IMG/VR virus record: IMGVR_UViG_3300045988_120991
Coordinates: 1 to 64,000 of that record
Strand: one strand, 5' to 3'
From: a virus
Length of the DNA: 64,000 nt
How positions within the stretch are numbered: the stretch's first letter is position 1; every line of letters starts with the position of its first letter. The notes under the pieces are model-generated. The model searched no databases and had not been told where the DNA came from. It saw nothing but the letters and a program-made list of their open reading frames with translations. Shown piece after piece: positions 2,537 to 27,509 of this stretch. Both the position numbers and the translations under genes were made by a program.

Positions 2537-2542
2537 TGCCTT

Positions 2543-3400: not shown

Positions 3401-3624
3401 AGAGTCCTCCACGGTTAAGGTTCGTCAACCATAAAATGTTGGTCAACACATAAGCGCTAACCATTGGGATAGGACTTTTTGAGTGGAAGTCCTTCAGAAA
3501 CCACTCGGCACATCGTGTTGCAAGGTTAAAAAACATAAGCCAAATCAATGGACATTTATGCTCACGGCATTACACGACTGCACCAGATATTCAGTTGTAC
3601 TCGTCAGAACTCGTCCAACGGTTG

Positions 3625-3987: not shown

Positions 3988-3988
3988 G

Positions 3989-4180
3989 TTACTTGTCCTC
4001 CTTACTGTCGAAAATTGCTACGATCATAGCATGGGTACAGGCAATGGCACAGTGGTCACAGTCAATGTGCATCCCCTTGTTGCAGCAACAGTTGCAAGAA
4101 TGCTTGAAAGCCTTGATTGCCGCCTCTTTGGTCAGCGCATCATATTGATAGTTGATTCCTACCTGCTCGAACTTAGTCAT
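3989..4180 (-). CDS. hypothetical Cys/His-rich protein (63 aa)
   Basis: ORF track. GGAAGGAG upstream. Contains SCNCCCNKGMHIDCDHCAIACTH, a metal-binding-like cluster. Confidence 0.65.
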   Translation of the reverse strand: MTKFEQVGINYQYDALTKEAAIKAFKHSCNCCCNKGMHIDCDHCAIACTHAMIVAIFDSKEDK

Positions 4181-4289
4181 GATTTACTCCTTCCTATGGA
4201 CTTGGCCTTAACTCCCGCTAAGTGAGTGGCACAAACATAAGCCCATAATGATACCCTTGAGCCATACAACTCAAGGGCACGATACGGGT

Positions 4290-4508
4290 TTATAATTTTT
4301 TAAGTCGAGCATAAATGCCATCACGGTTAAGTGATTTGGTACTCAATGTGTAATGGACACCTTTTTTGAAGATGTCCCAACCACCACTTCGTGGTATGAC
4401 ACGAATGTGGTGGAACTTGGCAACGGTGCATAGGGATGAAAAAGAGTTGCTACCACATATGGCAACAACTCTGTGTGCATCTTTGCTAAATAGTTTGAGA
4501 AGATGCAT
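4290..4508 (-). CDS. hypothetical basic protein (72 aa)
   Basis: ORF track. AAGGAG 9 nt upstream. Starts 4 nt after the stop of 4512..4781. Confidence 0.5.
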   Translation of the reverse strand: MHLLKLFSKDAHRVVAICGSNSFSSLCTVAKFHHIRVIPRSGGWDIFKKGVHYTLSTKSLNRDGIYARLKKL

Positions 4509-4511
4509 AAG

Positions 4512-4781
4512 TCAAAACTCCTTGATGGTGCATCTACCATCGAGCCATTCCATCAGGTCAATTGTATGACGACCAAGCATACTTACATATGCCACATTCA
4601 ACTCGAACCACATAAAGTCGTCGTTGTCGCACACATTCTCGAACTGGGCAATGATATTGTGGTTGGTGTCAGCTACAAACAAAACGTCCGCATCTTTGAC
4701 TGTGGACATTGTACCTTCTGCCCAACCGATGATTTTGCAATCATGATAGAGACTATGCAAGTCTGTGAGTGTGAACTTCAT
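4512..4781 (-). CDS. hypothetical protein (89 aa)
   Basis: ORF track. TAGGAGGAA upstream of the ATG. Confidence 0.7.
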   Translation of the reverse strand: MKFTLTDLHSLYHDCKIIGWAEGTMSTVKDADVLFVADTNHNIIAQFENVCDNDDFMWFELNVAYVSMLGRHTIDLMEWLDGRCTIKEF

Positions 4782-4858
4782 AATGAGTTCCTCCTAAGAA
4801 ATATTCGTCCCTCGCTCAATCGATTGCTTGGGACTACGGTATCTATCGGTACAGATAA

Positions 4859-4886
4859 GGGTTAAGCACTCTATAATGCTTAACCC
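4859..4886. repeat. perfect 10-bp inverted repeat GGGTTAAGCA-N8-TGCTTAACCC
   Basis: Read directly. The loop is CTCTATAA. No U-run on either strand. It lies 78-105 nt upstream of the - strand gene starting at 4781. Confidence 0.6.
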
Positions 4887-4984
4887 ATACTCGTAGGTTT
4901 GTAGCAATTCGCATCTAATGCGTATATATAAACACAAGACAAACTGTGTTCATCCCGTGTGGATTTGTGCTCTCATAATTAGAC

Positions 4985-5018
4985 AAAAAATTGGGACGAC
5001 ACCCGAAGGCATCGTCCC
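4985..5018 (-). terminator. rho-independent terminator (UUCG tetraloop)
   Basis: - strand reads GGGACGATGCC-TTCG-GGTGTCGTCCC followed by AATTTTTT. It begins 7 nt after the stop of 5025..5231. Confidence 0.8.
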
Positions 5019-5024
5019 GTGTGA

Positions 5025-5231
5025 TTAGTCATCGAAGCTATAGCTATGTGCTTCACCGTCGAAGCTGATGATGTAGCCATCGTCGGTGAACTCAACAAAC
5101 TCAGCCGACTGAATTGTCTCCTTACGAACGACTTTGTCCACATACTTGCCATAGGCAACGAACATAAGCCCTACGGCTACGAAGATAATCATACGGATGA
5201 TGAATTTGTACTCGCTATTGATTTTTTTCAT
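5025..5231 (-). CDS. hypothetical membrane-anchored protein (68 aa)
   Basis: ORF 5025..5249 trimmed to the ATG at 5231 (AAAGGAG 9 nt upstream). Contains the TM segment FIIRMIIFVAVGLMFVAYG. Confidence 0.65.
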   Translation of the reverse strand: MKKINSEYKFIIRMIIFVAVGLMFVAYGKYVDKVVRKETIQSAEFVEFTDDGYIISFDGEAHSYSFDD

Positions 5232-5346
5232 GATACATACTCCTTTCATACTCGGGGAATTTTTAGTGAGCCAATCTAATGCGTGTGTGTGGTCACATAG
5301 GAGAGAGTGTTCTCAACCTATGCAAAATTACACACTCACAATAGAA

Positions 5347-5380
5347 CAAAAAAAATGGGGGACACCCGAAGGTGTCCCCC
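5347..5380 (-). terminator. rho-independent terminator (UUCG tetraloop)
   Basis: - strand reads GGGGGACACC-TTCG-GGTGTCCCCC followed by ATTTTTTTT, 16 nt after the stop of 5396..5815. Confidence 0.85.
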
Positions 5381-5395
5381 GTGCTGGGAGAGTGC

Positions 5396-5815
5396 TTACT
5401 TGCAGATGCTGTCCTTGAGTGCCTGAAGGTCCTTCTTCGTACCTACGAAGCCGTACTCGTCCTTGGCAACCTTACGAGAGATGCTCGCACGGTCACGCTT
5501 GATAGCCTCGATGAGCTTCTTGGAAGGCTTATAGCCTTCACGCTTGGACTCGAAGTCGGCAAGGGCTTTTTCACGCTTCGCCTTCCAAGCCGCCTTTTCC
5601 TCGTCGGTGTGCCTACGGGACGTGTAGTTCTCCGCCTGCTTGCGGGTGATGAGCTTGGTTTCGCCCTTGGCGTTGGTATACTTGACCATTTCAGCCTCCG
5701 GCTGAACATTGCCAGTGGATTTCTTCACGGGCTTCTGCTCCGCGAGGGCTTTAGCGACCGCCTTAGCAACGATTTCTTCTACCTGCTCCTGAGTAAACAT
5801 AACCTTCTTAGCCAT
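5396..5815 (-). CDS. hypothetical Lys/Glu-rich protein (139 aa), first gene of the leftward arm
   Basis: ORF 5396..5992 trimmed to the ATG at 5815 (MAKKVMFTQEQ...), which has AGGAAGGAGAA upstream. Flanked by its own terminator. Confidence 0.7.
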   Translation of the reverse strand: MAKKVMFTQEQVEEIVAKAVAKALAEQKPVKKSTGNVQPEAEMVKYTNAKGETKLITRKQAENYTSRRHTDEEKAAWKAKREKALADFESKREGYKPSKKLIEAIKRDRASISRKVAKDEYGFVGTKKDLQALKDSICK

Positions 5816-5893
5816 AACGTTCTCCTTCCTGCACATCCGTGGCACGGAGTGCAAAACAAAAATAAAGTCAAGGGATTTCCCCTTGCTGATTGC

Positions 5894-5922
5894 ATTATAC
5901 ACCTTAAAAGATACCGTCTGAA
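5894..5922 (-). promoter_or_regulatory. candidate sigma-A-type leftward promoter
   Basis: - strand reads TTCAGA-17 nt-TATAAT. The -10 is at 5894-5899 and the -35 at 5917-5922, about 80 nt upstream of the ATG at 5815. Confidence 0.35.
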
Positions 5923-5931
5923 CCAAAAAAC

Positions 5932-5955
5932 TTCTCAAAATATCAATTTTGAGAA
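5932..5955. promoter_or_regulatory. perfect palindrome TTCTCAAAA-N6-TTTTGAGAA (candidate operator)
   Basis: Read directly. It sits just upstream of the candidate leftward -35. A third half-site TTCTCAAAA is at 6057-6065. Confidence 0.4.
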
Positions 5956-6056
5956 AATTGAACCTGGGGGTACATAAAACTGGCAAAAGCATTGAAAATA
6001 AACAATTTTGTAAGATGAGGTTATTTTGTATACTGACTTGAAAAATAAGAAAAATT

Positions 6057-6552
6057 TTCTCAAAACAAAAAATCGCAACAAATACCCAAAATCACCCCAT
6101 CCAAAGCAACAAATCTAAACCTATATCTCCACAAACCAAACTCTCAAACCATCCATATTTTCACCCTATAATATACCCATCAATTCCCAATTCCCAAATA
6201 TAAAAGCATCCCACTTCCACATCTCCAAATCCACCATCCAACAAATTTCTCTCGTATCGTACAAGCATTCTACTTTTAAGCAACACAAAACAAATCACCA
6301 AATTCCTCATCATATTGTACTAATACATTAATACAAAATCTAAAATCATAAGTGATCCACTATCGTCCTTCCCATCATCAAAACAGACCACTCAAAAATT
6401 CACCTTCTCACACTCCTATAAACACCTCTCCACATACTTTTAAAACAATCCTCTGCAAAAACTCCACCCTACCGGGGTACTTTCAACTATCCCTATACTA
6501 CTTTTTGCACAAGCCTACCTACAAAATAAAACATAACCCATAAAAAATAAAA
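6057..6552 (+). other. ~495-nt G-depleted (C/A-rich) non-coding tract
   Basis: Hand count: about 19 G in 6061-6540 (480 nt). No credible ORF or RBS. Confidence 0.85.
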
Positions 6553-6610
6553 AGTCCCATCCATAGGACTCTCAACATAAAAATAGTCCCATTTTTAGGA
6601 CACATAACAA

Positions 6611-6702
6611 TATATATTATAATAATATATATAAATATAATAATATATAGATATAAATATATAATAATATATAATATAATAATAAATATATATAATAATA
6701 TA
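6611..6702. repeat. near-pure A/T low-complexity tract
   Basis: About 92 nt of (TATA/AATA)n with a single G, read directly. Confidence 0.9.
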
Positions 6703-6766
6703 TAAGTACAAACACTATTGTCCAATCCTATTTGCCAATCATTTTTTTCTTAAATATAATGTTAAA

Positions 6767-6792
6767 TATTATATTGTTATATTATATTGTTA
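6767..6792 (+). repeat. tandem direct 13-mer TATTATATTGTTA x2
   Basis: Exact copies at 6767-6779 and 6780-6792. Confidence 0.85.
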
Positions 6793-6795
6793 AGC

Positions 6796-6955
6796 GTCCT
6801 AATTTTGGGACTTTTTTAGTCCCGCCGGTGGGACTTTTTTCATATAGGTAGTCCCAATTTTGGGACTTTTTAAAAAGTGTACTAATTTTGGGACTATTTT
6901 CGTGAAAAAGTCCCGCCAATGGGACTATTTTAAAAAAGTGTCATAATTTTGGGAC
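6796..6955. repeat. array of six GTCCY-N-GGGACT(W)TTTT hairpin/iteron units
   Basis: GGGAC starts at 6807, 6830, 6862, 6890, 6921 and 6951 (spacing 23-32 bp). Most have an upstream GTCCC/GTCCT arm and a T-tract. Two degenerate copies are at 6553-6570 and 6585-6602. Confidence 0.8.
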
Positions 6956-6963
6956 TTTTCCCC

Positions 6964-6992
6964 TTGACAAATGAAAAATTCTGTGTTATCAT
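6964..6992 (+). promoter_or_regulatory. sigma-A-type early promoter P1
   Basis: TTGACA (6964-6969), exactly 17 nt, then TATCAT (6987-6992). The 15-mer motif starts 2 nt downstream. Confidence 0.6.
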
Positions 6993-6993
6993 C

Positions 6994-7008
6994 ACAATAC
7001 AAAATTAT
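6994..7008 (+). promoter_or_regulatory. conserved 15-mer copy 1 (ACAATACAAAATTAT)
   Basis: 14/15 match to the consensus. Directly followed by AGGAGG and the ATG at 7021. Confidence 0.7.
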
Positions 7009-7365: not shown

Positions 7366-7380
7366 ACAATACAAAATTAA
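7366..7380 (+). promoter_or_regulatory. conserved 15-mer copy 2 (ACAATACAAAATTAA)
   Basis: Exact match, 22 nt upstream of the ATG at 7403. Confidence 0.7.
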
Positions 7381-8736: not shown

Positions 8737-8765
8737 TTGACAAAACTACCAATTTATGTTACAAT
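8737..8765 (+). promoter_or_regulatory. sigma-A-type early promoter P2
   Basis: TTGACA (8737-8742), exactly 17 nt, then TACAAT (8760-8765). The 15-mer motif starts 2 nt downstream. Confidence 0.6.
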
Positions 8766-8766
8766 T

Positions 8767-8781
8767 ACAATACGAAATTAA
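8767..8781 (+). promoter_or_regulatory. conserved 15-mer copy 3 (ACAATACGAAATTAA)
   Basis: 14/15 match, directly followed by AGGAGG and the ATG at 8794. Confidence 0.7.
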
Positions 8782-9021: not shown

Positions 9022-9036
9022 ACAATACAAAATTAA
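9022..9036 (+). promoter_or_regulatory. conserved 15-mer copy 4
   Basis: Exact match. Begins immediately after the stop TAA at 9019-9021 and is followed by AGGAG and the ATG at 9049. Confidence 0.7.
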
Positions 9037-11391: not shown

Positions 11392-11574
11392 ATGAATAAA
11401 TGTAAGGATTGCATGTTAGAGTGTGAGATTAAGGATGACGGAACAGATACTTGTGTGTGTAATGTAGAGGTAGAAAACAATGCGGGCGTTGAAACCTGTG
11501 TCTGTTGTGGAGAGGTAATTCCAGAAGGAAGACAGATATGTCTCAATTGCGAAAGAGCTTTAGATAAAAGATAA
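11392..11574 (+). CDS. Cys-rich zinc-finger mini-protein (60 aa)
   Basis: ORF track. TAGGAGGA upstream. Several CxxC pairs. Confidence 0.7.
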   Translation: MNKCKDCMLECEIKDDGTDTCVCNVEVENNAGVETCVCCGEVIPEGRQICLNCERALDKR

Positions 11575-11588
11575 CAATACAAAATTAA
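11574..11588 (+). promoter_or_regulatory. conserved 15-mer copy 5
   Basis: Exact match. Overlaps the last base of the stop TAA and is followed by TGGAGG and the ATG at 11601. Confidence 0.7.
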
Positions 11589-13509: not shown

Positions 13510-16341
13510 TTGGCAAAAGCACAAAAAACACAACAGTTTATATATAAAATAAATTCAAGTTTACTCAGACAAAATAATTGGGACTTAAAATTACCATTAT
13601 CGGATGCAAGAAAAATACCAGGGGTCGTTGTTTCTTTGGCTGATTCACAAATTTTAACATGGATTAACGAATTAAATGGTACTGAAAATTATGATAATGA
13701 CGCAAAAAAGATAAAAGATGAAATAAAAAATATAAAGAAACAGCCAAATAGCGCAGAAAATAAGACGAAAATCTCGGAAAAGTATTCAAAATTATATGAT
13801 TTGCAGTTTAAAAAGGACTACTTATGCCTGATTATAGATAAAAAGTCCGATTATGATAGAGCAAATGAAGGCTTTAAGGTTAATGGAATAGCGTATAAAA
13901 GACTTATATGTACTACAAATGGCGTCAAAACATCTAGTGTTGTATATGCCGCAGATAGAATTGTTGAATACAAAGGACAAAAGATAAATATTCATGATGA
14001 ATTGAAAAGACGCATAGAAAATGGCAGAAACACGAGTATAAAGCTCTCCCCTGCTAAATATGGGGCTTATGAATCACTTGCAGCAAGTGCTTCTATCCCA
14101 GTTAGTTGGCCAAGATCTAAAGAGAATAAAATTCCAGGTGGAATAATTGTCGTAAAAGACTGTATTGTTCATTTTAAGGCCAATTTTATTGAAATAGACG
14201 ATAGTGATCCAACATCAGAACCGAAAGTTACTGAGAAGCACGATGCTGATTTTGAAAATAATATGTCGGATGGATGTTCTATGATGCTCCCCCATTTGTC
14301 TAAAAGATGGAATGGGGAGTTGAATGGAGATTCAGAGCATACTATGAGTGGGTGTAATATGCGTTGTGCTTTCACAAAGGGTATGGCACTTACTTTTGAT
14401 TTCATAAGATTTGCAGAAGAAGTCGTTGGTGCCTCCGAAGAAAATCCTGAAAAATATTTAATTGAGGATTATTGGGGGCAAGAAAGAGATGTTCGTGATG
14501 CTGATTTAATTTTAACTGAAAGTCAACTTAAATTATGTGGTAGTTATAGTTCTTGGGAAGATTATTATACGAAATGCATTGAAAATCATTATACTTTAAG
14601 GGTTACGAAGACCTCAGAAGAAGAAAATGATGATATAAGACAGTTGAATTATCAGTTTATTCAGTCTTTAGACCTCACAAATGAAGATATAGATGAGCTT
14701 GTTGCTCCTACGGTCAATGAAATCAAGGATATTATGGAACTAGATCCAAGAAAAAGTGTTGCATATTTATGTGGAAAAGGTCTGAATGAAAAGAATGTAT
14801 TATTTGCCGATAATGTTGCAAAGGCACTTATGATTGATGAGACAGCCATAAATGATCCTTATATTCGTTCAAAAATTAAAAAAATGATAAATAGACGCAT
14901 AAAAGATGCCAAAATTGGTGTTTTAGATTTACATGGGAACTTTCAAATCCTTTCTGGTGATTTATATGCCCTTTGTGAGAGTATGTTTGGTTTAAATCCA
15001 CATGGAATCTTAAAGGCGGGTGAAATTTATAGCAAGTATTGGTATGATGAGGGTGTAGATAGGGTTCTTTGTTTTAGAGCACCAATGAGCAATGCTCATT
15101 CTATAGTTGCTCAAAACATTTGTACAAACGAAAAGGCTCTTGACTGGTTTCAATATATCAATACTTGCATAGTTGTGAATGGATGGGACACTATGCCTGC
15201 TGCTTTGAATGGCTTTGATTTTGATGGAGACTTGTTGTTTACAACGAATAATGCGCCGTTAATGAGAAGACAGACTAACCTCCCCGCTTTAAACTGTATA
15301 CAAACCAAAGCTCCTAAGAAGGTCGTTACAGATGAAGATGTCATTGCCTCTAATAAAGCGGGATTTGGCAGTAAGATTGGGTCCATAACAAATAAAATTA
15401 CTGCAATGACCAGTTTGATGGCCAACTATGATAAAGACAGCGAGGAATATGAAGTTTTAAGATATAGAACACAGTGTGGTCAAGCATTGCAGCAACGTGA
15501 AATAGATAAAGCCAAAGGTATTTTACCGATTCCAATGCCAAAAGAATGGTATCAATATGGAGCAAATGTTATAAAACCAGAAGATTTCGATGAAATTCAA
15601 GTGAAAAAACAGTTCAATCAGGCCATTTGTGCAAACAAAAAGCCATATTTCTTTATGTATAACTACGATGCAGAAAGAATCAATTATCAGAAATTTATCG
15701 AAGAAGCCAACTCAAAATCAATTGGTTTATATGGATATTCGTTTGAAGATATGCTAAAAATGGATGATTTGAGTGAAGATGCAGATAAATTTGTTAAATA
15801 TTGCACAATAAAGTGCCCGATTGACATGTCCCCTTCTACTATGAACCGTATTTGTTGGAAAATAGAAAGTGAATTTAGTGGAAACTTTCTTTGTGATGAT
15901 GTTGATTTTGATTACAGGATTTATAAGTCAGGAAATGAAGTTAAAAGAACTTCTTATTTTGAAATTAAATCTTTGTGTGAACACTACTTAATGGATTTAA
16001 AGAATTTAAATAGCAGAAAAATTAACAATGAAGAAGAGCGAAAGATACTTTTAGTAGATAAAGATAGATTGCTTGAAGTTCTTATAGAGGATATAACTTC
16101 TATTTGCCCAAATCAAGAGACTCTTTGTGATATTCTTTTAGATATTTGTTATACTGGAAAAATGAGTAAAAGTGTTGTTTGGGATGTTTGTGGTAATCAA
16201 ATTATTGAGAATATGTTAAAAAAGCACGACAATGTACTTACTTATCCAGAAAAGTGTTTAGAAGCAGAGTTTTCTTGTTGTGGGACAAAATTCTTTAGTA
16301 AAACCATTAAAGTTGGAGGTGAAAAAGCCGATGAGGTTTAA
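13510..16341 (+). CDS. putative single-subunit two-barrel RNA polymerase (YonO / RdRP-like), 943 aa
   Basis: NGFDFDGDLLF (GAT TTT GAT GGA GAC at 15217-15231) fits the DbDGD catalytic loop. The upstream VLCFRAPMSNAHS and LSGDLYAL segments resemble RdRP/YonO first-barrel motifs. TTG start. Confidence 0.6.
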   Translation: MAKAQKTQQFIYKINSSLLRQNNWDLKLPLSDARKIPGVVVSLADSQILTWINELNGTENYDNDAKKIKDEIKNIKKQPNSAENKTKISEKYSKLYDLQFKKDYLCLIIDKKSDYDRANEGFKVNGIAYKRLICTTNGVKTSSVVYAADRIVEYKGQKINIHDELKRRIENGRNTSIKLSPAKYGAYESLAASASIPVSWPRSKENKIPGGIIVVKDCIVHFKANFIEIDDSDPTSEPKVTEKHDADFENNMSDGCSMMLPHLSKRWNGELNGDSEHTMSGCNMRCAFTKGMALTFDFIRFAEEVVGASEENPEKYLIEDYWGQERDVRDADLILTESQLKLCGSYSSWEDYYTKCIENHYTLRVTKTSEEENDDIRQLNYQFIQSLDLTNEDIDELVAPTVNEIKDIMELDPRKSVAYLCGKGLNEKNVLFADNVAKALMIDETAINDPYIRSKIKKMINRRIKDAKIGVLDLHGNFQILSGDLYALCESMFGLNPHGILKAGEIYSKYWYDEGVDRVLCFRAPMSNAHSIVAQNICTNEKALDWFQYINTCIVVNGWDTMPAALNGFDFDGDLLFTTNNAPLMRRQTNLPALNCIQTKAPKKVVTDEDVIASNKAGFGSKIGSITNKITAMTSLMANYDKDSEEYEVLRYRTQCGQALQQREIDKAKGILPIPMPKEWYQYGANVIKPEDFDEIQVKKQFNQAICANKKPYFFMYNYDAERINYQKFIEEANSKSIGLYGYSFEDMLKMDDLSEDADKFVKYCTIKCPIDMSPSTMNRICWKIESEFSGNFLCDDVDFDYRIYKSGNEVKRTSYFEIKSLCEHYLMDLKNLNSRKINNEEERKILLVDKDRLLEVLIEDITSICPNQETLCDILLDICYTGKMSKSVVWDVCGNQIIENMLKKHDNVLTYPEKCLEAEFSCCGTKFFSKTIKVGGEKADEV

Positions 16342-17218
16342 TTTCAATGAAAAAAGTAAAATTTATAGTATCGTAGAAGATGGAGACATAAATGGTTTGA
16401 CTGTAAATAAAGCCATTTGGAATGCCGCAATTTATTATACTCAACTAAATCCAGTTGATAAAAATTATGTTTTTTGGAAAATTGTTGAGTTTATGAATAA
16501 ATATTATAATGACTTTATGTATCAAGGTTATGTTTCTACTATAAATAGAGATATAAATAAGGCTTATAAATATAAAATCAAGGATGTAAGTTCTATCAAT
16601 ATAACAAAGAAAGAAATGGACAAGATTATATCTTTGAATGATATAAGAAAAGAAAAGATTGCGTTTGTTATTTTGGCCTTGGCAAAATATCAAAATGCTG
16701 AAAGTCAAAGAGATAACGATACATTTTATGCAAAAACTTCCGAGATATTTAAATTTGCAAGGGTTGTTATCCCAGCAAAAGAAAGAGATTTGTATTTTGG
16801 GTTTGCATATAGAGAAGGATTGCTTAAGCAGAATTTTAGTATAGGATATAATGCCCTGACTGCTGCTTTTGTAAATCATGATGAAGATGAGGTCGTTCTA
16901 ACACTTGACGAGTGTGATTATTTGGAACTTGCATATTCGTATTTAAATTATAAGAATGGCGGATATAAGAGATGCGAGGCTTGTGGAAGGTGGTTTAAGT
17001 CTAAATCTAACGCGGCAAAATATTGTAGTATTCATCGTCCGGATTATGAGTTATCTAGTGACGTTGAAATTGAATGCATTGAATGTGGAAAAAGATTTTT
17101 AGTAAACCCTCTTGCTACGGAAACTTGCAGATGTGAACAATGTAATTCTGTATATCAAAAGAAAAGAAATGCAATTAAAAATAAAGTGTATAGGGATAGA
17201 ATGAGAAATAAATCGTGA
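16331..17218 (+). CDS. Zn-ribbon protein translationally coupled to the RNAP gene (295 aa)
   Basis: ATG at 16331 overlaps the RNAP 3' end by 11 nt, with GGAGG upstream. The C-terminus has CEACGRWF..CSIH and CIECGKRF..CRCEQCN. Confidence 0.7.
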   Translation: MRFNFNEKSKIYSIVEDGDINGLTVNKAIWNAAIYYTQLNPVDKNYVFWKIVEFMNKYYNDFMYQGYVSTINRDINKAYKYKIKDVSSINITKKEMDKIISLNDIRKEKIAFVILALAKYQNAESQRDNDTFYAKTSEIFKFARVVIPAKERDLYFGFAYREGLLKQNFSIGYNALTAAFVNHDEDEVVLTLDECDYLELAYSYLNYKNGGYKRCEACGRWFKSKSNAAKYCSIHRPDYELSSDVEIECIECGKRFLVNPLATETCRCEQCNSVYQKKRNAIKNKVYRDRMRNKS

Positions 17219-17235: not shown

Positions 17236-17250
17236 ACAATACAAAATTAA
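17236..17250 (+). promoter_or_regulatory. conserved 15-mer copy 6
   Basis: Exact match. This copy alone is followed by a terminator hairpin rather than an SD. Confidence 0.7.
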
Positions 17251-17254
17251 TGCT

Positions 17255-17285
17255 AAAAACACAAGGAATTTCCTTGTGTTTTTTA
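17255..17285 (+). terminator. rho-independent terminator
   Basis: CACAAGGA-ATT-TCCTTGTG with A/T extension and a TTTTTT tail. Confidence 0.8.
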
Positions 17286-17383
17286 CTCTTTAGTAAGATA
17301 AAGTGGAACAAAATAGTAATGATATAAGAATATTGCTTATATTTTTATATAAATAAATTACAAACAAATGGAGGTACAAAAAT

Positions 17384-17998
17384 ATGGAAAATCTAGCCGT
17401 TGTAATTCCTAACAATGCAGCAAATCTACAACTCCCAGACCCAGTGCTTCGTGATTATTATAGAGACGAAGAGCAAAGAATCTATTGGGTAGATGGTGAA
17501 ATTGATTCTTCCCTACTCGACTTAGTGAAGATGATTATGCATTGTAATAAAGAGGATAAAGACAAGCCAGTTGAAGAAAGAATGCCAATCAAGGTGTTTA
17601 TTGATTCTCCTGGTGGTGATGTGCAGGCTCTGTATACAACAATTAAGGCAATTGAGATTAGTAAAACACCAGTTTATACAATTAATTATTGTGGTGCTTA
17701 TAGTGCTGCCGCAATTCTATTGACTGCTGGGCATAAGCGTTTTGCTCTTCCTGGTACAAGCGCAATGTTCCATCGTGGTTCTTGTTACTATGGTGGAGAG
17801 CAAAGTGTTGTTGAATCTATGAAGAAGTATTTTGATGCGCTAGATAAGAAAGTTGACGAGTTTTTATTTTCTCACACAAGTATTGATCAGAAGGTCTATA
17901 AGAGAAAGGCTTCTTCCGACCTATATATGGATGAGAATGAGTGTTTAAAGAATAATGTTATTGATAGTGTTATATCTGACTTTGAAGAGATTATGTAA
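17384..17998 (+). CDS. ClpP-family serine protease-like protein
   Basis: IDSPGGDV...CGAYSAAAILL...MFHRGS...SSDLYMD parallels the ClpP Ser-His-Asp context. Confidence 0.7.
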   Translation: MENLAVVIPNNAANLQLPDPVLRDYYRDEEQRIYWVDGEIDSSLLDLVKMIMHCNKEDKDKPVEERMPIKVFIDSPGGDVQALYTTIKAIEISKTPVYTINYCGAYSAAAILLTAGHKRFALPGTSAMFHRGSCYYGGEQSVVESMKKYFDALDKKVDEFLFSHTSIDQKVYKRKASSDLYMDENECLKNNVIDSVISDFEEIM

Positions 17999-18011
17999 CT
18001 AGGAGGATCAT

Positions 18012-18722
18012 ATGGTAGCAAAAAAGAGAGCTGTTACAAATGAATATGGAGAAGCACCAAAGAATATTGATGACAAGCCATTTTACAGTCTTGAATTGGA
18101 TGTAGACCAGAAAAAATTTGTAAATGCTATTTTAAATCCAGATAATACAATTGTTTTCTGTAATGCAAAAGCTGGAACTGGAAAGACCACTCTAGCAATG
18201 GGGACGGCAAATATTCTTGTGCAACACGGAGAATACGATGGCATTGTTTATATTTGCAGTAGTTATGGTGAGCATAAGCAAGGATTTCTACCAGGAAGTA
18301 TTACGGAGAAGTCAGAAGTGTACTTCGAGCCTGCATATCAAGCTATGATTGAATGTAATATGAACCCTAATGTATGTGTTGACAATGATTCTATGGTGAA
18401 TCAAAAATATGGAGAAGCTTATGTTACTCTACTTACACATACATTTTTAAGAGGAACTAATTTGAAGAAAAAGGTAATTATACTCGATGAGGCTCAAAAC
18501 TATACTGTTGCAGACTTAAAGAAAACATTAACACGGTGTTCTGATGATTGTAAGGTTATAGTTGTTGGTCATGATAAACAGTGTGACCTTAAAGATAAAC
18601 ACACTACTGGATTTATGAAATATATTGACCATTTTAGAGGTCATGAAAATTGTGAAATATGTGAATTGACAATAAATCATCGTGGATGGTTAAGTCAGTT
18701 TGCAGATGAATTAGAAGAATAA
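18012..18722 (+). CDS. phoH: PhoH-like ATPase
   Basis: Walker A NAKAGTGKTT and Walker B VIILDEAQN. FLPGSITEKSEVYFEPAYQAM and FLRGTN resemble PhoH. Confidence 0.7.
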   Translation: MVAKKRAVTNEYGEAPKNIDDKPFYSLELDVDQKKFVNAILNPDNTIVFCNAKAGTGKTTLAMGTANILVQHGEYDGIVYICSSYGEHKQGFLPGSITEKSEVYFEPAYQAMIECNMNPNVCVDNDSMVNQKYGEAYVTLLTHTFLRGTNLKKKVIILDEAQNYTVADLKKTLTRCSDDCKVIVVGHDKQCDLKDKHTTGFMKYIDHFRGHENCEICELTINHRGWLSQFADELEE

Positions 18723-18737
18723 TAGGAGGAACAAATT

Positions 18738-18929
18738 ATGGCAAGTAGTATTACTAAGAAGTACACAATAAATGCAAAGGGTATTCTTCATATTGATGGA
18801 GAATATATCGGAATTGAAAATACTGATACAGGAGAGATGTTTTCTTTACCAGAGTTAGCTGCTGATTTTGCAGATAAGACTGTGAAGTTTACTCTAACTT
18901 ATGATGAGGATTATGGCTCTGATGAGTAA
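18738..18929 (+). CDS. hypothetical protein (63 aa)
   Basis: ORF track. TAGGAGGAA upstream. Confidence 0.75.
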   Translation: MASSITKKYTINAKGILHIDGEYIGIENTDTGEMFSLPELAADFADKTVKFTLTYDEDYGSDE

Positions 18930-18942
18930 GGAGTTGGTGACA

Positions 18943-19245
18943 ATGAAGAGAGTACTTAAAAAGAAGGATATTGCCAATGAATTAGCTAAGAGATGTGATT
19001 TTTATAAGTATTCAATGGAGGCAGTCGTTGATGCTCTTGAGGATATAATTATTGAAAATATGGGTGAAGCAACCTTTGATGAAGATGCAGAAATTCAGTT
19101 GGCAAAGGGTCTTACAATTGGTGCTCGTAGATTCCCAGAGCGTGAAGCAAGAGATCCTAGAAACCAAGATAAGATAACAACTCCTGAGAAGGTAATACCG
19201 TTCGCAAAGTTTACATATACATTTAGGCAAAAAATTAACGAGTGA
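18943..19245 (+). CDS. HU/IHF-like DNA-binding protein
   Basis: Trimmed to the ATG at 18943 (AAGGAG upstream). RRFPEREARDPRNQDKITTPEKVIPFAKF resembles the HU beta-arm. Confidence 0.6.
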   Translation: MKRVLKKKDIANELAKRCDFYKYSMEAVVDALEDIIIENMGEATFDEDAEIQLAKGLTIGARRFPEREARDPRNQDKITTPEKVIPFAKFTYTFRQKINE

Positions 19246-19253
19246 GGTATGAT

Positions 19254-20444
19254 ATGGAATATAAAAAGTTAAGCGAAGAGAACGAACAGCAATATATACT
19301 GCGTATATGCTCAATGAAGGAGCAAAATAGCTGGACTTGGCAAGATATTGCGAATATTTTAAATGATTCTTTAGGATATAGCTATGGAGAGAGCAAATAT
19401 CGTAAAGAATTTCAGTCATTCAATAAAATGATGGAAGCCAATGAGGGTACATTTTTTACAGACGATGAGTATCTAAAGAAAATCCGCGAAGAGAAGGAAG
19501 AGCTTTTTAAGGCTAAAAAGCAGTTTCAGGACCAAAGACGTGAATATAATAAAATCCTTACTATGGATGCACGTTCTGATCATTTAACTGAGGAACTGAT
19601 TAAGGTTGCGAAATCTTTACCAGCAAGACAGTTGAATAATTTTTCGGACATTCCAGTAGTTGAAGCTGGTAAAGAGGCAGTCTTGATTCTTGCAGATTGG
19701 CACTACGGAGAAGTTTCAGATAATATTTGGAACAAATACAATACGGATATATGCAAACAGCGAGTTGAAAAGCTCTATGAAAAGGTGTCTCAATATTTAA
19801 GACACAATCATGTTGAGAAGCTACATATTATGCTTCTCGGAGATGAAATTCATGGTGCAATTCATTCTAGCTGTAGAGTCATGTCTGAAGAAGATACATG
19901 CGAACAACTTATACATGTGTCTGAAATTATAGCACAATTTATTGATGAGTTATCATCAAAAGTAAATCATATTGATGTATATTCAACATACGGAAATCAT
20001 GCAAGAACAATTCAAAATAAAGATGATAGTATTCATTCTGACAACATGGAGCGTATTATTCCATGGTGGATAAAGCAAAGACTACAAAATAATAACCGTG
20101 TTAAAATAATTGATAGCGATTATTATGAGTTTATTGCATTTAGTGTGTGTGGATACAACATTGTTGGATGTCATGGAGACCTTGATAAAGTTAAGAATTT
20201 TGGTATTGTTGCGAATACTATTTTCTCAAAGCTTTATGGAAAAACTATTGACTACGCATTTCTTGCGGATAAGCATCATATTGAAGAATTTGAGCAACTT
20301 GGAATTGAATCTATTTTAGTTCGTTCTTTGTGTGGTGCAGATGAATATTCAAATAATAAAAGATTGTATTCTGCTCCAGGTCAGACTTTGGTAATTTTTA
20401 CACCAGAAGATGGAAGGCAGTGTACATATAACATTAAACTATAA
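19254..20444 (+). CDS. calcineurin-like metallophosphoesterase
   Basis: Motif series ADWHYG / GDEIHG / GNHAR / GCHGD. Trimmed to the ATG at 19254. Confidence 0.65.
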   Translation: MEYKKLSEENEQQYILRICSMKEQNSWTWQDIANILNDSLGYSYGESKYRKEFQSFNKMMEANEGTFFTDDEYLKKIREEKEELFKAKKQFQDQRREYNKILTMDARSDHLTEELIKVAKSLPARQLNNFSDIPVVEAGKEAVLILADWHYGEVSDNIWNKYNTDICKQRVEKLYEKVSQYLRHNHVEKLHIMLLGDEIHGAIHSSCRVMSEEDTCEQLIHVSEIIAQFIDELSSKVNHIDVYSTYGNHARTIQNKDDSIHSDNMERIIPWWIKQRLQNNNRVKIIDSDYYEFIAFSVCGYNIVGCHGDLDKVKNFGIVANTIFSKLYGKTIDYAFLADKHHIEEFEQLGIESILVRSLCGADEYSNNKRLYSAPGQTLVIFTPEDGRQCTYNIKL

Positions 20445-20459
20445 ACAATACAAAATTAA
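20445..20459 (+). promoter_or_regulatory. conserved 15-mer copy 7
   Basis: Exact match. Starts the base after the stop TAA and is followed by GGAG and the ATG at 20474. Confidence 0.7.
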
Positions 20460-20473
20460 GGAGAATTAAAACA

Positions 20474-20680
20474 ATGGAAGAAAAGAAAGCAAAGCTAATT
20501 TTTAACATGGGAGTAGCTAGATCCCTACTAAAGAAGGGCGCAAAGGTAATTGATGTAAAGCCCGATAGAGACAATCATGATAAGACGATTGTTGTATTTG
20601 AGCGTGATGAGGCGTTTGAAAAGGCTTTTGCCGAGCTAAACGAAGAGCTAAAGGCAAAGGATAATACCGAGGAGAAGTAA
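20474..20680 (+). CDS. hypothetical protein (68 aa), paralog-like to 34390..34614
   Basis: ORF track. ARSLLKKGAKVIDV...IVVFERDEAFEKAF is similar in pattern to the 34390 product. Confidence 0.75.
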   Translation: MEEKKAKLIFNMGVARSLLKKGAKVIDVKPDRDNHDKTIVVFERDEAFEKAFAELNEELKAKDNTEEK

Positions 20681-20722
20681 TCACATTTTATAAAATTCTA
20701 AAAGAAGGGAGGAAGAGTGGTT

Positions 20723-21994
20723 ATGGCTGCAAAAAGTCCAGGTAGGAAAACTACAAAGAAAGAAATGGAGCCTAAGTATCTTTGTCCATATTGTAATAAA
20801 GAGAAAAAAGCTTCTGAATTTTATATGTCTTCTGACCCACTAGTTATGACCGGCAAAACAACTATGTGCAAGGATTGCGCAGAAAAGATAGCAAGAAATT
20901 GGGACGGAAGAACTGGTGAATTTGGAGATTGTACAAAAGCATCAGTTCAAGAGGCGCTTGAACGTTTAGATAAGCCATATTTTGATAAGCTCTGGGATTC
21001 TAGTTACTTTGAATATATTAATGATAACAATCCTAAAAAGCGTACAAATATATGGGCATCTTATATAAAAAACATTGGATTGCCACAGTATAAAACGCTT
21101 CGTTGGAGAGATGGAGATTTATTTACTAGTTATAAAGAAACTGCATTAAAGCAAGCCCAACAGGAAGTTGGTACTGCTCCCGCTGAAGAAATAGCGAAAA
21201 GTCAAGAAATAAATGAAGAATACGAAAAGAACCGTGCCGATGTAATTAGATTACTTGGATACGATCCATTTGAAAAAGAGCAAGAAGAAGACAAACCACT
21301 CCTCTACTCTCAATTAATTGGATATTTGGATCTTGGTGGAGATAATGATGACATGATGAGGACATCTTCTGCCATTACTATTGTTCGTGGGTTTTCACAA
21401 CAGGCAAAGTTAGATGATATGATTGCAAAAGCCATGGCATCTCCAAATGTTTCTAATAAATCAGGAGAAATAAAAGCATATCTTGATTCAAAGCAAAAAG
21501 TTAGCTCTACAATTTCTCAATTGGCCGAACAAAGCTGTTTGAGTTTAAAGCATAATAAAAATGCTTCCAAAGGAGAAAATACTTGGACTGGTAAGATTAA
21601 GAAGATAAAAGAGCTGAATCTTCGAGAAGGAGAGGTCAACGGCTTTGATATTGCTACATGCAAAGGTATGCGCCAAGTTATGGATTTAAGCAATGCTTCC
21701 ATATTGAAGCAGTTGGCATTAGATGAATCCGAGTATTCTGATATTGTAGCGGAGCAAAGAAAGCTTGTAACTGAACTTACTAACGAAAGAGATAGTTATA
21801 AAGAGATAGTCAGAATTTTGCTTAGAGAAAATCTTGATTTAAAAGATGTTTTGTCTGAGAATGATTTATTGCCGCCAGATAATCTCGCTGATTTGAATGA
21901 TTTATTCTCCGCATTCAGTGATATTGAAACTGATGAGGAGGTGCAAGACGATGAACAGTCAGATGAAAATCAAGATAGTCGAGGAGATGAATGA
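20723..21994 (+). CDS. zinc-ribbon protein upstream of terminase (possible small terminase subunit)
   Basis: CPYCN...CKDC near the N-terminus and an acidic tail. Function is inferred from position only. Confidence 0.4.
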   Translation: MAAKSPGRKTTKKEMEPKYLCPYCNKEKKASEFYMSSDPLVMTGKTTMCKDCAEKIARNWDGRTGEFGDCTKASVQEALERLDKPYFDKLWDSSYFEYINDNNPKKRTNIWASYIKNIGLPQYKTLRWRDGDLFTSYKETALKQAQQEVGTAPAEEIAKSQEINEEYEKNRADVIRLLGYDPFEKEQEEDKPLLYSQLIGYLDLGGDNDDMMRTSSAITIVRGFSQQAKLDDMIAKAMASPNVSNKSGEIKAYLDSKQKVSSTISQLAEQSCLSLKHNKNASKGENTWTGKIKKIKELNLREGEVNGFDIATCKGMRQVMDLSNASILKQLALDESEYSDIVAEQRKLVTELTNERDSYKEIVRILLRENLDLKDVLSENDLLPPDNLADLNDLFSAFSDIETDEEVQDDEQSDENQDSRGDE

Positions 21995-23999
21995 CGAGTA
22001 TTTGTCTGATTTGATAAATGGTGGGAATACTGTTTATGTTAAACCAGGCATATACGCAATGTCAACTCGTAAAATAGAAGCGCTTATAAAGATTGCAGAA
22101 TTGCAGAAATACTATCAATGTAATCCAGTTAGATTTATAAGTGATTTTTTCGGCATAGAGCTGATTGACGCTCAGGCATGGATTGTTCAGAGGTCTTGGA
22201 ATTGCCCTAATGTTCTTGTTGTTGCTACTCGTGGTCTTGGTAAGTCTACTATTATAGACTTAATTATCATGAGTAAAGGAATGCTGTTTAATAACTTCTG
22301 GAGTTATATAGCATCTGGTTCTGGTGGGCAGGCAGAGCAAACATTTACTACTCTTGAACGTCTTGCTAATGATAACATTGACGAGATGGTCGGCTCAACT
22401 GGATATATATTTAAACACGAAGTTGAAATTAAGAATGCTGCAGGAGATGGATTTAGTCATTCAAGTAATGGATTTACATATTCTTTATACAATGGCTCTA
22501 TGACTCAAACTCTAAATAGTAATATAGATGCCAAGCGTGGTATGCGTGGTACTGTAATATTTGATGAGTCTGGCTTCCTATCTGCTGAAATGATGAAGGT
22601 TTACGGTGCATTTGCCATCGTAAATAAAAGCTTTAAAACTGGTAAGGACAGAGACGGTAATCTTATCGACCCAATTAGACTTCGTACATTCCCAACAAAT
22701 ATACCAAACCAAAAGTTTTATATCAGCTCTGCATCTAGTACGGATACAGAGTTTTATCGTTTATATAGGGAATTTTCAAAGAGGCAGTTGATTGGTGATC
22801 AGGATTATTTTGTCGCACATATAGATTGTGAGGTAGCTTTTAGACCGACTATGCATGGCAAGGTTATTGCCCCACTATTGATGAAGAGTACTGTTGAGAC
22901 AGAAATGGCTACAAATCCAGAAAAGGCACGTCGTGAGTATTATTGTGAGTTTACGACTGATGCTGGATTGAACGCAATCATTAAGCGTGGTACAATTGCG
23001 CGTAATAGTGAAACACGTGTGCCATTGTTGTTTAATGACACAGATAAAAAGAAATTTGTATTTGCATACGACCCCGCTCGTTCAAGGGATAACAGTGTCA
23101 TTCTTGTAATGGAACTTTATATTGACGAACACGGTGATTATAAAGGTCGTATCGTAAACTGCGTCAATCTACTTGATGTCGGTAAAAAACGTAAGAGTCC
23201 AATGCAAACACCAGATCAGATTAAATATTTAAAAGAACTCATATTGGATTATAACGGTAATGCTTCTGATTATGAAAATATAGAGGCAATTTTAATAGAT
23301 GCCGGTTCTGGTGGTGGTGGCGTAAATATCGCAGACTATTTGATGGAAGATTGGGTGGATAATAAGGGAAACAAGCATAGAGGTTTGATAGATAAGGAAT
23401 ATAGTGCGGATTATGTAAGCAAGTATCCTAATGCTATTGACAAACTTAAACTGGTCTCACCTACTCAATATAAGTCAATTATTTATGAGGCTCTTATTGA
23501 AATGATGAATTTGGATTGTATTAGTCTTACATCTGATTATGATAATAAGGGTTATTTAACGTTATTTGAAGTTGATGATAAATTATATAATTCAGAAAAG
23601 AAAAGAATATCTGACGAATTGCAAAAACAAAAAGTTCCAGAAGCAGAATTTAATATGAAGCTTGAAGAAGAGATGAAAAAGTCTTCATGCATTAAAACAA
23701 AGATGGTGCATCTTGATCCATATCAAGAAATAGCGCTTAAAAACATAGATGCTATGAAAGAAGAAATGGTAAACATGATGCGTAAAAAGAGAGAATCGGG
23801 TAAGGATTCCTTTGAATTAATACCTGAAAAAGCAAACAGACTGCATGACGACCGTTCATATTGTATGGCTCTATGTGCGTGGTTTTTATCAGAAAAACGT
23901 GCAGAACGTATTCGTAATAAGAAAAGAAAGTTTGATTATAAGCTTATAGATATGTTGCCAGTTACACCACGCAAACAGATTGAAAAAATTTTTGGATAA
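21951..23999 (+). CDS. terL: terminase large subunit
   Basis: Walker A ATRGLGKST and Walker B VIFDESGF. The C-terminal nuclease-like region has FAYDPARSRD and LHDDRS. Start moved to the ATG at 21951 (GAGGAGG upstream). Confidence 0.8.
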   Translation: MNSQMKIKIVEEMNDEYLSDLINGGNTVYVKPGIYAMSTRKIEALIKIAELQKYYQCNPVRFISDFFGIELIDAQAWIVQRSWNCPNVLVVATRGLGKSTIIDLIIMSKGMLFNNFWSYIASGSGGQAEQTFTTLERLANDNIDEMVGSTGYIFKHEVEIKNAAGDGFSHSSNGFTYSLYNGSMTQTLNSNIDAKRGMRGTVIFDESGFLSAEMMKVYGAFAIVNKSFKTGKDRDGNLIDPIRLRTFPTNIPNQKFYISSASSTDTEFYRLYREFSKRQLIGDQDYFVAHIDCEVAFRPTMHGKVIAPLLMKSTVETEMATNPEKARREYYCEFTTDAGLNAIIKRGTIARNSETRVPLLFNDTDKKKFVFAYDPARSRDNSVILVMELYIDEHGDYKGRIVNCVNLLDVGKKRKSPMQTPDQIKYLKELILDYNGNASDYENIEAILIDAGSGGGGVNIADYLMEDWVDNKGNKHRGLIDKEYSADYVSKYPNAIDKLKLVSPTQYKSIIYEALIEMMNLDCISLTSDYDNKGYLTLFEVDDKLYNSEKKRISDELQKQKVPEAEFNMKLEEEMKKSSCIKTKMVHLDPYQEIALKNIDAMKEEMVNMMRKKRESGKDSFELIPEKANRLHDDRSYCMALCAWFLSEKRAERIRNKKRKFDYKLIDMLPVTPRKQIEKIFG

Positions 24000-24011
24000 G
24001 AAAGGAGGCCG

Positions 24012-25556
24012 ATGCCTTTGGATAGTTTTGAACAGAAAAAGAAGAAGTTAACAGACGAAGAACGCATAGCGGCTCTCCAGAAAGAAGAAAGAGCTAGGGC
24101 TAGGTTTGCTGCGGCTAAGGATGTTCTACAGTTAATCGACCTAGAAAGTAGCAGAACTCAATCTTATACAGTATATTCTAAGGATAATCTTCGTACATAT
24201 TTGCAGAATCCATCTACGGAAGCAAACCAAAAGAATTTGAGGAATCTGTCCGAATTCTTATTTACTGTTAGCTATGTATATAGACGATTGGTTTTAAATA
24301 AAGCAAATCAGTTTGATGCAAAAAGTTATATTGTTTACCCTAGATTAAATGATAATGGAGAGGTTGAAGACTCTTCTTATCAGAATTATATTAAGACAAG
24401 TAACTATGTTCAGGGTATGCATTTAGATACACAGATTCGTAAATGTTTGATAAAAGCTTGGTTAGATGATGTTGTATATGGGTTTTGCTATGGTAATCCA
24501 GAAGAGGATGATTTCTTCATACATATATTAAATCCAGATTATTGTAAAATTTCAAGCGTTGATTATTATAGCGGGAAAATAAATTTCGCATTCAACTTTT
24601 CATTTTTTGATGGTTCAAATAGTTTTTATCTTGATGTATATGACCCTATTTTTAACAAGATGTATAATTCATATAAATCTGATAGTAAACTTCGTTGGCA
24701 AGAATTACCACCAGAGAGTACTTTTTGTATAAAGATTAATGAGGAGAATTTGGATTATCCTATTCCCCCATTTAGTGGAATGTTTAATTCATTGATTGAC
24801 CTTGTAGATATATCACAAATTCAAGCGGTAAAGGATGAATTGTCCGCGTATAAACTTATTTGGGCAAAAATTCCAACTATTTCTGGTTCTCAAGAAGTTG
24901 ATGACTTTGCGATAGATTTGGAATTGGCAAATCAATTCTATCAGAAGTTACAAGAAATCGTCCCAGACGGTATTGCTCTTGGATTGTCTCCTATGGACTT
25001 GCAGGATATTACGTTTGAAACAAATGCTACAGATGACACTAACATTGTCAATAAGGCATATCAAAATTTGATAGAAGCTAATGGTGATATAGTTTTAAAT
25101 TCAAATAAAATTACCAATAGTACAAGCTTTAAGTATGCCATGATGGCCGAAAGTATGACGGCTATGGCTGTTGTTAAACAGTTCAATGTATGGGTTAATT
25201 TTTATATTAAAAATAACCTTGGTGTCGAAGATGTTATTGTTGAGTTTTCTGATGTTAGCAAATATTTTAAAGATGATAAGATTGAGCAACTGTTGAAGTT
25301 GGCTCAATATGGTTTGCCAGTTAAGACACAAATGGCTTCACTACTTGGTATTGATCCTGCAAAGTGTCGTTCCTTAGAGTATCTAGAAGATAAGCTTGGC
25401 TTAGCAAAAACAAAGTGGATTTCTCCGTTGGTGTCTAGTAATGTTCAGAGTGGCATGTCTGAAAATGGAGATGGTTCCAATGGTCGTCCTGTAAGTGATG
25501 AGCCGTTGACTGATGAAGGTGAGAATACAAGAGATGGAAATAAGAATGATAAATAA
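24012..25556 (+). CDS. putative portal protein
   Basis: 514 aa, immediately downstream of terL, strong RBS. Called by position and size only. Confidence 0.55.
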   Translation: MPLDSFEQKKKKLTDEERIAALQKEERARARFAAAKDVLQLIDLESSRTQSYTVYSKDNLRTYLQNPSTEANQKNLRNLSEFLFTVSYVYRRLVLNKANQFDAKSYIVYPRLNDNGEVEDSSYQNYIKTSNYVQGMHLDTQIRKCLIKAWLDDVVYGFCYGNPEEDDFFIHILNPDYCKISSVDYYSGKINFAFNFSFFDGSNSFYLDVYDPIFNKMYNSYKSDSKLRWQELPPESTFCIKINEENLDYPIPPFSGMFNSLIDLVDISQIQAVKDELSAYKLIWAKIPTISGSQEVDDFAIDLELANQFYQKLQEIVPDGIALGLSPMDLQDITFETNATDDTNIVNKAYQNLIEANGDIVLNSNKITNSTSFKYAMMAESMTAMAVVKQFNVWVNFYIKNNLGVEDVIVEFSDVSKYFKDDKIEQLLKLAQYGLPVKTQMASLLGIDPAKCRSLEYLEDKLGLAKTKWISPLVSSNVQSGMSENGDGSNGRPVSDEPLTDEGENTRDGNKNDK

Positions 25557-25568
25557 GGAGGCGGCATA

Positions 25569-25748
25569 ATGAACCAAAAAAAGTTTATAATTACTAAAGA
25601 TCCAGATGTGGCAAAGCAACTTGCCGCTACCTTTAAACAAGTAAATAAGACAAATGATATGTGGGTGTTTCTAAATGAGATAACCACAAATTTTAATTTT
25701 GCTGAGTATAGCAAGAAAATTTCATTTACAAATATTTTATGTCTGTAA
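25569..25748 (+). CDS. hypothetical protein (59 aa)
   Basis: AAGGAGG 7 nt upstream. Hand-translated MNQKKFIITKDPDVAKQL... Confidence 0.5.
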   Translation: MNQKKFIITKDPDVAKQLAATFKQVNKTNDMWVFLNEITTNFNFAEYSKKISFTNILCL

Positions 25749-25795
25749 TCTCTTTTTAGAGTTTATAGTTATTCTGCGAGAAAGGAGGAAATTAC

Positions 25796-27493: not shown

Positions 27494-27509
27494 AATATAA
27501 AACTTTAAG

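Follow-up and report, generated by a model that had tools for sequence, protein, structure and literature searches.

YonO-type enzymes are, to our knowledge, the smallest relatives of cellular RNA polymerases, and we know of only one that has been studied. That enzyme, YonO of phage SPbeta, is a strict DNA-dependent RNA polymerase with an essential aspartate triad; it is required for 37 SPbeta late genes and uses a single start site 5' of yonK, published as position 2225998 of B. subtilis 168, and its promoter and any cofactors were left open in the same study (Forrest et al. 2017, PMC5467207). Eight residues are invariant across all two-barrel polymerases, namely D709, R738, K743, R962, P964, D1007, D1009 and D1011 in the numbering of Qde1 (Ruprich-Robert and Thuriaux, PMC2919709). 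Here we analysed a 64,000-nucleotide stretch of viral DNA (hereafter the window; positions 1 to 64,000 of IMG/VR record IMGVR_UViG_3300045988_120991), which comes from a gut phage of ~160 kb. One open reading frame (ORF) in it is very probably the gene of a single-chain two-barrel RNA polymerase of the YonO family, which would be expressed early and transcribe the late genes.

The ORF listing and its translation bore out what the first-pass annotation of the window had described, a single 943-residue frame (13510–16341) with DFDGD at 15217–15231. The frame opens with TTG, and the codons gat ttt gat gga gac encode residues 570–574. All three peptides named in that annotation, GWDTMPAALNGFDFDGDLLF, LHGNFQILSGDLYAL and RVLCFRAPMSNAHS, were found exactly in the translation. 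The TTG start is credible because a Shine–Dalgarno (SD) sequence, GGAG, lies 9 nt 5' of it and because relatives align from residue 1 or 2. The Pfam family RdRP (PF05183, which covers QDE-1, RDR and YonO) matched residues 115–632 with an E value of 4.2e-15 and 55.9 bits, compared with a curated cutoff of 23.8, and close homologues of the polymerase carry the same domain in precomputed annotation. A BLASTP comparison with SPbeta YonO returned an E value of 9e-29 at 28% identity over 391 columns (residues 253–633), pairing SDGCSMMLP with TDGCGMMLP, RCAFTKGM with RLPWVKGL and DFDGD with DNDGD.

Searching a library of 50,697 phage genomes with tblastn matched 40 records, every one below 60% identity to the polymerase. 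Clostridium phage c-st led with 37%, ahead of Enterocloster phages with 34% and Bacillus phage BUCT082 with 29%. Next came the SPbeta group, with yonO itself among its matches; 24 Bacillus SPbeta-like phages were matched. At the nucleotide level, a megablast search of phage genomes with the gene gave no match. In PHROGs the protein falls into three families without an assigned function, two of which span only its N- or C-terminal part, and close relatives are already auto-named 'RNA-dependent RNA polymerase' in public databases. Judged by these sequence comparisons, the polymerase is an added member of the already described YonO family, and an ordinary one.

Counterparts of the eight invariant residues lie in the same order on the single polymerase chain, at D254, R285, K290, R523, P525, D570, D572 and D574. 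Their equivalence to the Qde1 residues was established by motif order and spacing (31/5/47 in the polymerase versus 29/5/45 in Qde1). All eight are invariant both in 25 close homologues and in 137 homologues spanning 26–88% identity. A six-frame scan of the whole window found DxDGD only once, and the DFDGD is no chance match because D570, D572 and D574 remain invariant in the 137-sequence alignment, down to 26% identity.

The first three of these residues fall in a beta-like double-psi barrel region whose boundaries we place at about residues 212–296. D254, R285 and K290 are invariant, and their spacing fits that of Qde1 D709, R738 and K743; the region aligns with TDGCGMMLP and RLPWVKG of YonO, it is where a profile of the 137 homologues meets RDR2 (E = 0.014), and the predicted structure shows strands there. 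The remaining five, R523, P525, D570, D572 and D574, correspond by order and spacing to Qde1 R962, P964, D1007, D1009 and D1011 and mark the beta-prime-like barrel. The first-pass annotation had likened LHGNFQILSGDLYAL and RVLCFRAPMSNAHS to the first barrel, which needs correcting: both peptides belong to the beta-prime-like barrel, together with DFDGD. For RVLCFRAPMSNAHS this follows because its FRAP holds R523-x-P525, the universal RxP of the DFDGD barrel. The beta-like barrel, with D254, R285 and K290, and the beta-prime-like barrel, with R523-x-P525 and D570-F-D-G-D574, would together build one Mg-dependent active site.

An initial structure model, built from the 25 close homologues (61–96% identity), reached a predicted local distance difference test score (pLDDT) of 56.6, with catalytic regions below 50, and was discarded. 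For the final alignment, homologues of two distant relatives were added and the set was thinned to <80% identity; the AlphaFold2 (AF2) model from this enlarged alignment had a pLDDT of 92.9 and a predicted template modelling score (pTM) of 0.88. In a Foldseek search of the PDB with this model, the top 21 matches were all plant RDR2 or fungal QDE-1 (probability 1.00, E values of 1e-18 to 4e-12), with alignments of ~900 columns and TM scores of 0.39–0.53. Large subunits of cellular RNA polymerases were matched only at E > 0.04, and crAss gp66 was not among the 50 best PDB structure matches. Among the predicted viral structures of BFVD, the best matches were phage proteins labelled RdRP (E = 3e-42). 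The structural check set by the first-pass annotation thus returned RDR2 and QDE-1 as the only significant PDB matches and found no different fold, and the model is consistent with a fold that contains two double-psi beta-barrels. The conserved helix that follows the second barrel (Table 1) spans residues 645–669 in the model.

Sequence-based searches of the PDB with the single polymerase sequence, with the full profile and with a profile limited to the DFDGD barrel matched nothing significant, and the searches found no YonO-family member among solved PDB structures. With the full profile, influenza HA2 helices came top (E = 0.003), which we judged to be a chance match, ahead of RDR2 (0.014) and QDE-1 (0.44).

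Because the Pfam match lies above its cutoff, homology to YonO is clear, all eight catalytic residues are invariant and the model matches only RDR2 and QDE-1, we assign the protein to the two-barrel polymerases of the YonO/QDE-1 type, in support of the first-pass annotation. Both barrels lie on one chain, which is not the split beta/beta-prime arrangement of the phage polymerases of phiKZ and AR9. The length of 943 residues and the location in an early operon likewise do not fit the virion-packaged crAss-like or N4-like type, in which the domain is part of a virion protein of >2000 residues. The window does contain a 2316-residue ORF in its tail region (39977–46927); it has neither DxDGD nor a polymerase domain, Pfam matches it only with DUF6273 at the C terminus, and the PHROG families it falls into lack an assigned function.

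The gene layout around the polymerase agrees with early expression. Near-consensus sigma-A-type promoters occur on the sense strand of the 64 kb at 6732, 6964 and 8737 only, and the scan of this strand found none in 17.3–64 kb. The promoter at 8737 heads a gene string that runs from 8794 to the polymerase and the gene directly 3' of it, with little non-coding space. The string ends at an intrinsic-terminator-like hairpin, which is the best terminator match in 6–22 kb and is kept in relatives. Beyond it lies a co-oriented late cluster, in which the HU gene is yonN-like and the YonD-like gene is followed by capsid, tail and lysis genes; a YopX gene lies 5' of the polymerase. The order polymerase, partner, ClpP, PhoH, YonK-like, HU, YonJ, YonG, terminase, portal and YonD is kept in all relatives retrieved. 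We propose that host sigma-A RNA polymerase, starting at the promoters at 6964 and 8737, would transcribe the early gene string, that this string would end with the polymerase and its coupled partner and stop at the terminator, and that the phage polymerase would then transcribe the >45 kb of co-oriented late genes from 17384. The scheme matches SPbeta, in which a single start site serves YonO for transcription of the late operon. Scanning the window with Rfam identified no RNA family, and no tRNAs were found in it.

The gene directly 3' of the polymerase encodes a 295-residue protein. Its listed ORF spans 16280–17218; the ATG at 16331, preceded by GGAGG, is the likeliest start and overlaps the polymerase stop by 11 nt, an arrangement in which the partner would be translationally coupled to the polymerase. 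A partner homologue (22–100% identity) lies directly 3' of the polymerase in all relatives with downstream sequence, including c-st (CST177), BUCT082 and PMBT24. A library of 1.84 billion proteins contains 726 representatives of the partner family at E ≤ 1e-3, mostly stand-alone proteins of 240–300 residues, and among the best 150 representatives none was fused to a polymerase-sized protein. The zinc ribbon of the partner resembles residues 776–816 of YonO, within its C-terminal ~60 residues (E = 2e-4 in a small comparison). Profile searches of Pfam and the PDB assigned the partner to no family and returned sub-threshold zinc ribbons only; these, RPB12 (E = 0.011) and the TFIIB ribbon (E = 0.019), were not taken as homologues.

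The strict co-location, the translational coupling and the partial fusion in YonO make the partner a candidate accessory or initiation factor of the polymerase. The first-pass annotation had stated that the window holds no other polymerase subunits or sigma factors. This stands for known families, as no RNA polymerase beta or beta-prime subunit, sigma factor or anti-sigma factor was matched by Pfam or PHROGs among the other window ORFs scanned, but it overlooks the always co-located partner. YonO-type polymerases might even be two-component enzymes, the partner acting as an initiation factor that steers them to one start region, the TAYAATGATA box and hairpin described below; we regard this as a doubtful proposal. 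If true, it would give YonO-type polymerases their first promoter and their first specificity factor.

This candidate start region lies 3' of the terminator and 5' of the first late gene. Its box, TAGTAATGATATAAG, is a single copy in the window. Relatives have TAYAATGATA at the equivalent position, always followed by a hairpin with a constant register and different stem sequences: ATATAAG/CTTATAT, GATAAG/CTTATC, TGATAGT/ACTATCA, ATGAGTAG/CTACTCAT and TGATATAGGA/TCCTATATCA. We assessed these junction hairpins by folding each sequence individually (z-scores of −1.5 to −7.8), the MAFFT alignment of the junctions being too poor for covariation counts. Two resemblances serve as leads rather than tests. 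In BUCT082, TATAATGAGGGA-ttagca-TCCCTC lies immediately 3' of the HU gene, and in SPbeta the centre of the amplicon that mapped the YonO start, placed via the primer-extension primers, is TCATTTATGAGGG. From position and conservation, box and hairpin together may form a late start region and are a better late-promoter candidate than the 15-mer to which we now turn.

The first-pass annotation had considered a recurring 15-mer, ACAATACAAAATTAA, as a possible promoter of the polymerase. The motif is real, with ten matches in the window at ≤2 mismatches compared with 0.76 expected. We took a census of the window and 56 related loci, which yielded 127 non-redundant copies. Promoters of phage polymerases typically recur as exact copies of one motif, as in T7. 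In keeping with a promoter at which transcription would start at each copy, the 15-mer is asymmetric and lies in the sense orientation of the genes in 124 of the 127 copies, it stays near-exact in relatives whose polymerase identity is as low as 52%, and one copy always stands at the junction of the polymerase operon and the late genes.

The contexts of the copies nevertheless speak against the promoter reading. About a third (42 of 127) lie directly 3' of a sigma-A-type promoter, and the gap from the −10 element to the 15-mer is 1 nt in the clade of the window and 2–17 nt in others, whereas the distance to the SD is 0–13 nt. Because the former varies and the latter stays short, the 15-mer tracks the ribosome-binding site and not the start site. 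An SD follows within 22 nt in 84 copies, abutting the motif in 45 of these; in the window, the 15-mer often begins at the stop codon of the gene before it and mostly abuts an SD. A stable hairpin follows 30 of the 127 copies. Copies precede early genes that lie 5' of the polymerase itself, the terminator begins within 5 nt of the junction copy, and the late region has only three copies, none past 29.2 kb.

A known element offers a closer parallel. SPBRE of SPbeta is a 15-bp repeated element bound by the master repressor MrpR (PMC10516654). We recovered it as CAAATACAAAWAATATGTATAT 5' of yonP, yonT, yonX, yopK, yopM, yopV and yorE, and it is absent from the yonN–yonK spacer that contains the YonO start site. 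Like the 15-mer, SPBRE is asymmetric, sense-oriented and 15 bp long, has the core AATACAAAA, and is placed between sigma-A promoters and the SD sequences of early genes, including the polymerase operon. The two are equal at 10 of 15 positions, and the 15-mer differs in occurring also in the late region and before terminators. A tblastn search with YopR/MrpR found no homologue in the window or the related loci. Given the SD tracking and the likeness to SPBRE in core and placement, we tentatively favour an SPBRE-like or stoperator-like operator as the most likely reading of the 15-mer. In our judgement an RNA-level leader element is less likely than an operator, and a promoter recognised by the polymerase is unlikely.

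For the polymerase itself, the YonO precedent suggests DNA-dependent activity, and transcription of the phage late genes is its most likely role. Several points weigh against this interpretation. The template specificity is taken from a relative only 27–28% identical, and the nearest solved structures are RNA-dependent enzymes. A single long transcript must pass several terminator-like hairpins in the late cluster. Some relatives have weak sigma-A-like −10 elements at the junction, such as TTGAGA-16-TATAAT in L003, which leaves room for host polymerase to take part in transcribing the late genes. Last, the role of the partner is read from co-location only.

Alternatively, the polymerase could be active but serve a special purpose, for instance making primers or small RNAs, while host polymerase and phage factors transcribe the late genes. 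A −10-like TAYAAT box, accompanied in some relatives by a −35-like hexamer, does lie ahead of the first late gene, and host-type intrinsic terminators occur within the late cluster. We nonetheless consider this very improbable, as 17.3–64 kb lacks a near-consensus sigma-A promoter, the ORFs scanned include no sigma or anti-sigma factor, and genetic evidence from SPbeta shows that the 37 late genes depend on YonO. Least probable is an RNA-dependent RNA polymerase that copies or amplifies phage or host RNA, as the Pfam family name, the RDR2 and QDE-1 folds and the automatic names of close relatives would have it, because YonO, the sole characterised phage member, has a strong preference for DNA templates and is needed for late transcription (PMC5467207), the gene resides in a double-stranded DNA phage in synteny with yonO, and the names of the relatives stem from automatic domain transfer.

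Table 1. Coordinates of the polymerase locus and associated elements in the window
Feature	Position	Strand	Details
Probable YonO-family single-chain two-barrel RNA polymerase gene, 943 residues, TTG start	13510–16341	+	ORF, Pfam, BLASTP, AF2, Foldseek
Beta-like double-psi barrel region, residues ~212–296	14143–14397	+	D254 (SDGCSMM), R285/K290 (MRCAFTKG)
Beta-prime-like double-psi barrel region, residues ~472–596	14923–15297	+	R523-x-P525 at 15076–15084, Mg-binding DFDGD at 15217–15231
Long conserved helix, residues 645–670	15442–15519	+	Invariant E646, R653, Q661, D666, K669, G670
Partner gene, 295 residues, candidate polymerase accessory/initiation factor	16331–17218	+	Helical N-domain and C-terminal double zinc ribbon
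15-mer copies	799–813 (−); 6994–7008, 7366–7380, 8767–8781, 9022–9036, 11574–11588, 17236–17250, 20445–20459, 29212–29226 (+)		Asymmetric, intergenic, always in the sense orientation
15-mer copy at polymerase operon/late gene junction	17236–17250	+	Same place in nearly all relatives
Box TAGTAATGATATAAG and hairpin, candidate late promoter/leader	17314–17350 (box 17314–17328; hairpin 17322–17350)	+	Family consensus TAYAATGATA
Near-consensus sigma-A-type early promoter	6964–7008	+	TTGACA-17-TATCAT, TG-extended; then 15-mer copy after 1 nt, then SD
Near-consensus sigma-A-type early promoter	8737–8781	+	TTGACA-17-TACAAT, TG-extended; with 15-mer copy; heads polymerase gene string
Intrinsic-terminator-like hairpin	17255–17283	+	13-bp stem, A-run before, T-run after; ends early/polymerase operon
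Late cluster	17384–29207, on to window end	+	ClpP-like protease, PhoH, YonK-like, HU, YonJ-like, YonG-like, large terminase, portal, YonD-like, structural genes

Strong SD sequences and TTGACA/TATAAT promoters suggest that the host is probably a gut Firmicute. A search of genome contigs found no integrated prophage relatives, only phage-sized contigs from metagenome-assembled genomes without a sign of lysogeny. Three relatives (L066–L068) were in metagenome-assembled genomes labelled Prevotella, Gastranaerophilales and Paludibacteraceae, on contigs of 45–166 kb, of which two, at 147 and 166 kb, have the full size of a phage; these labels are probably binning artefacts.

Elsewhere in the window, an AT-rich repeat block (6612–6712) lies within 6550–6960 beside the palindrome GTCCYAATTTTGGGAC/GTCCTAAAAATGGGAC, which occurs at least five times, each copy with a T-run after it. 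The palindromes are situated where gene strand and GC skew change, immediately 5' of the first early promoter, and could be operators, terminators or an origin. The left end (1–6000) has a G+C content of 41–46%, compared with 33–36%, and a negative GC skew; ORFs of similar length overlap on both strands, almost none with a family match, and the region may be a different module or the other transcription arm. Tail-fibre-like genes contain in-frame tandem 45-nt repeats and dispersed 36-nt repeats (55696–55830 and 50342–50788).

Mobile elements were observed in the relatives. The polymerase gene of c-st and the CB phages appears to be split by group-I-intron-like inserts (4662–4958 in c-st, L002; 2030–3184 in Enterocloster phage CB473P1, L010), whereas the window gene is uninterrupted. 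On these inserts the Rfam model Intron_gpI was spanned in full at sub-threshold scores (25–28 bits, E ~1e-4). One insert lies exactly within the DxDGD codons. That of CB473P1 carries a 250-residue ORF and interrupts the invariant QQxExDKxKG helix, a position that would be expected of a site critical for function. Homing-endonuclease-like genes occur in relatives and not in the window: GIY-YIG genes between partner and ClpP (L005, 13695–14423; L014, 12881–13594) and LAGLIDADG genes in or beside the terminase (L011, 15534–18614; L012, 18796–20064; L013, 10158–11123). In SPbeta (L001), the yonN–yonK spacer contains a DUF3800-VIII RNA (6661–6726; Rfam, 47.5 bits, above threshold), ~260 nt 5' of yonK and within the YonO-transcribed region.

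Gut metagenomes contain the polymerase clade in abundance, in hundreds of variants. This abundance provides a comparative handle, comprising the adjoining partner, the unique conserved box with its hairpin and a confident model for mutagenesis, and the conserved partner and junction architecture make the questions of a YonO promoter and cofactor testable.

Among the closest cultured-phage relatives, c-st, Enterocloster phages PMBT24 and CB473P1-3 and BUCT082 share 29–37% identity across ≥95% of the length, and all have the partner gene directly 3' of the polymerase, as in the window. The nearest structures, QDE-1 (2J7N) and RDR2 (7W82, 7RQS and 7EU0), share the Pfam family and the same eight residues at 11–14% sequence identity; they produce double-stranded RNA that serves silencing, in contrast to the phage homologue YonO, which transcribes DNA. 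With SPbeta YonO the polymerase shares the homologous catalytic core and the motif order, with DNDGD in place of DFDGD, at ~27% identity and with 943 rather than 839 residues. The setting is likewise shared, with an early operon, HU, YonK-, YonJ- and YonG-like genes, terminase and portal in genomes of >125 kb, but ClpP and PhoH are inserted ahead of the YonK-like gene in the window. YonO has no partner neighbour and bears a similar zinc ribbon at its own C terminus, whereas the polymerase described here is accompanied by a separate 295-residue partner.

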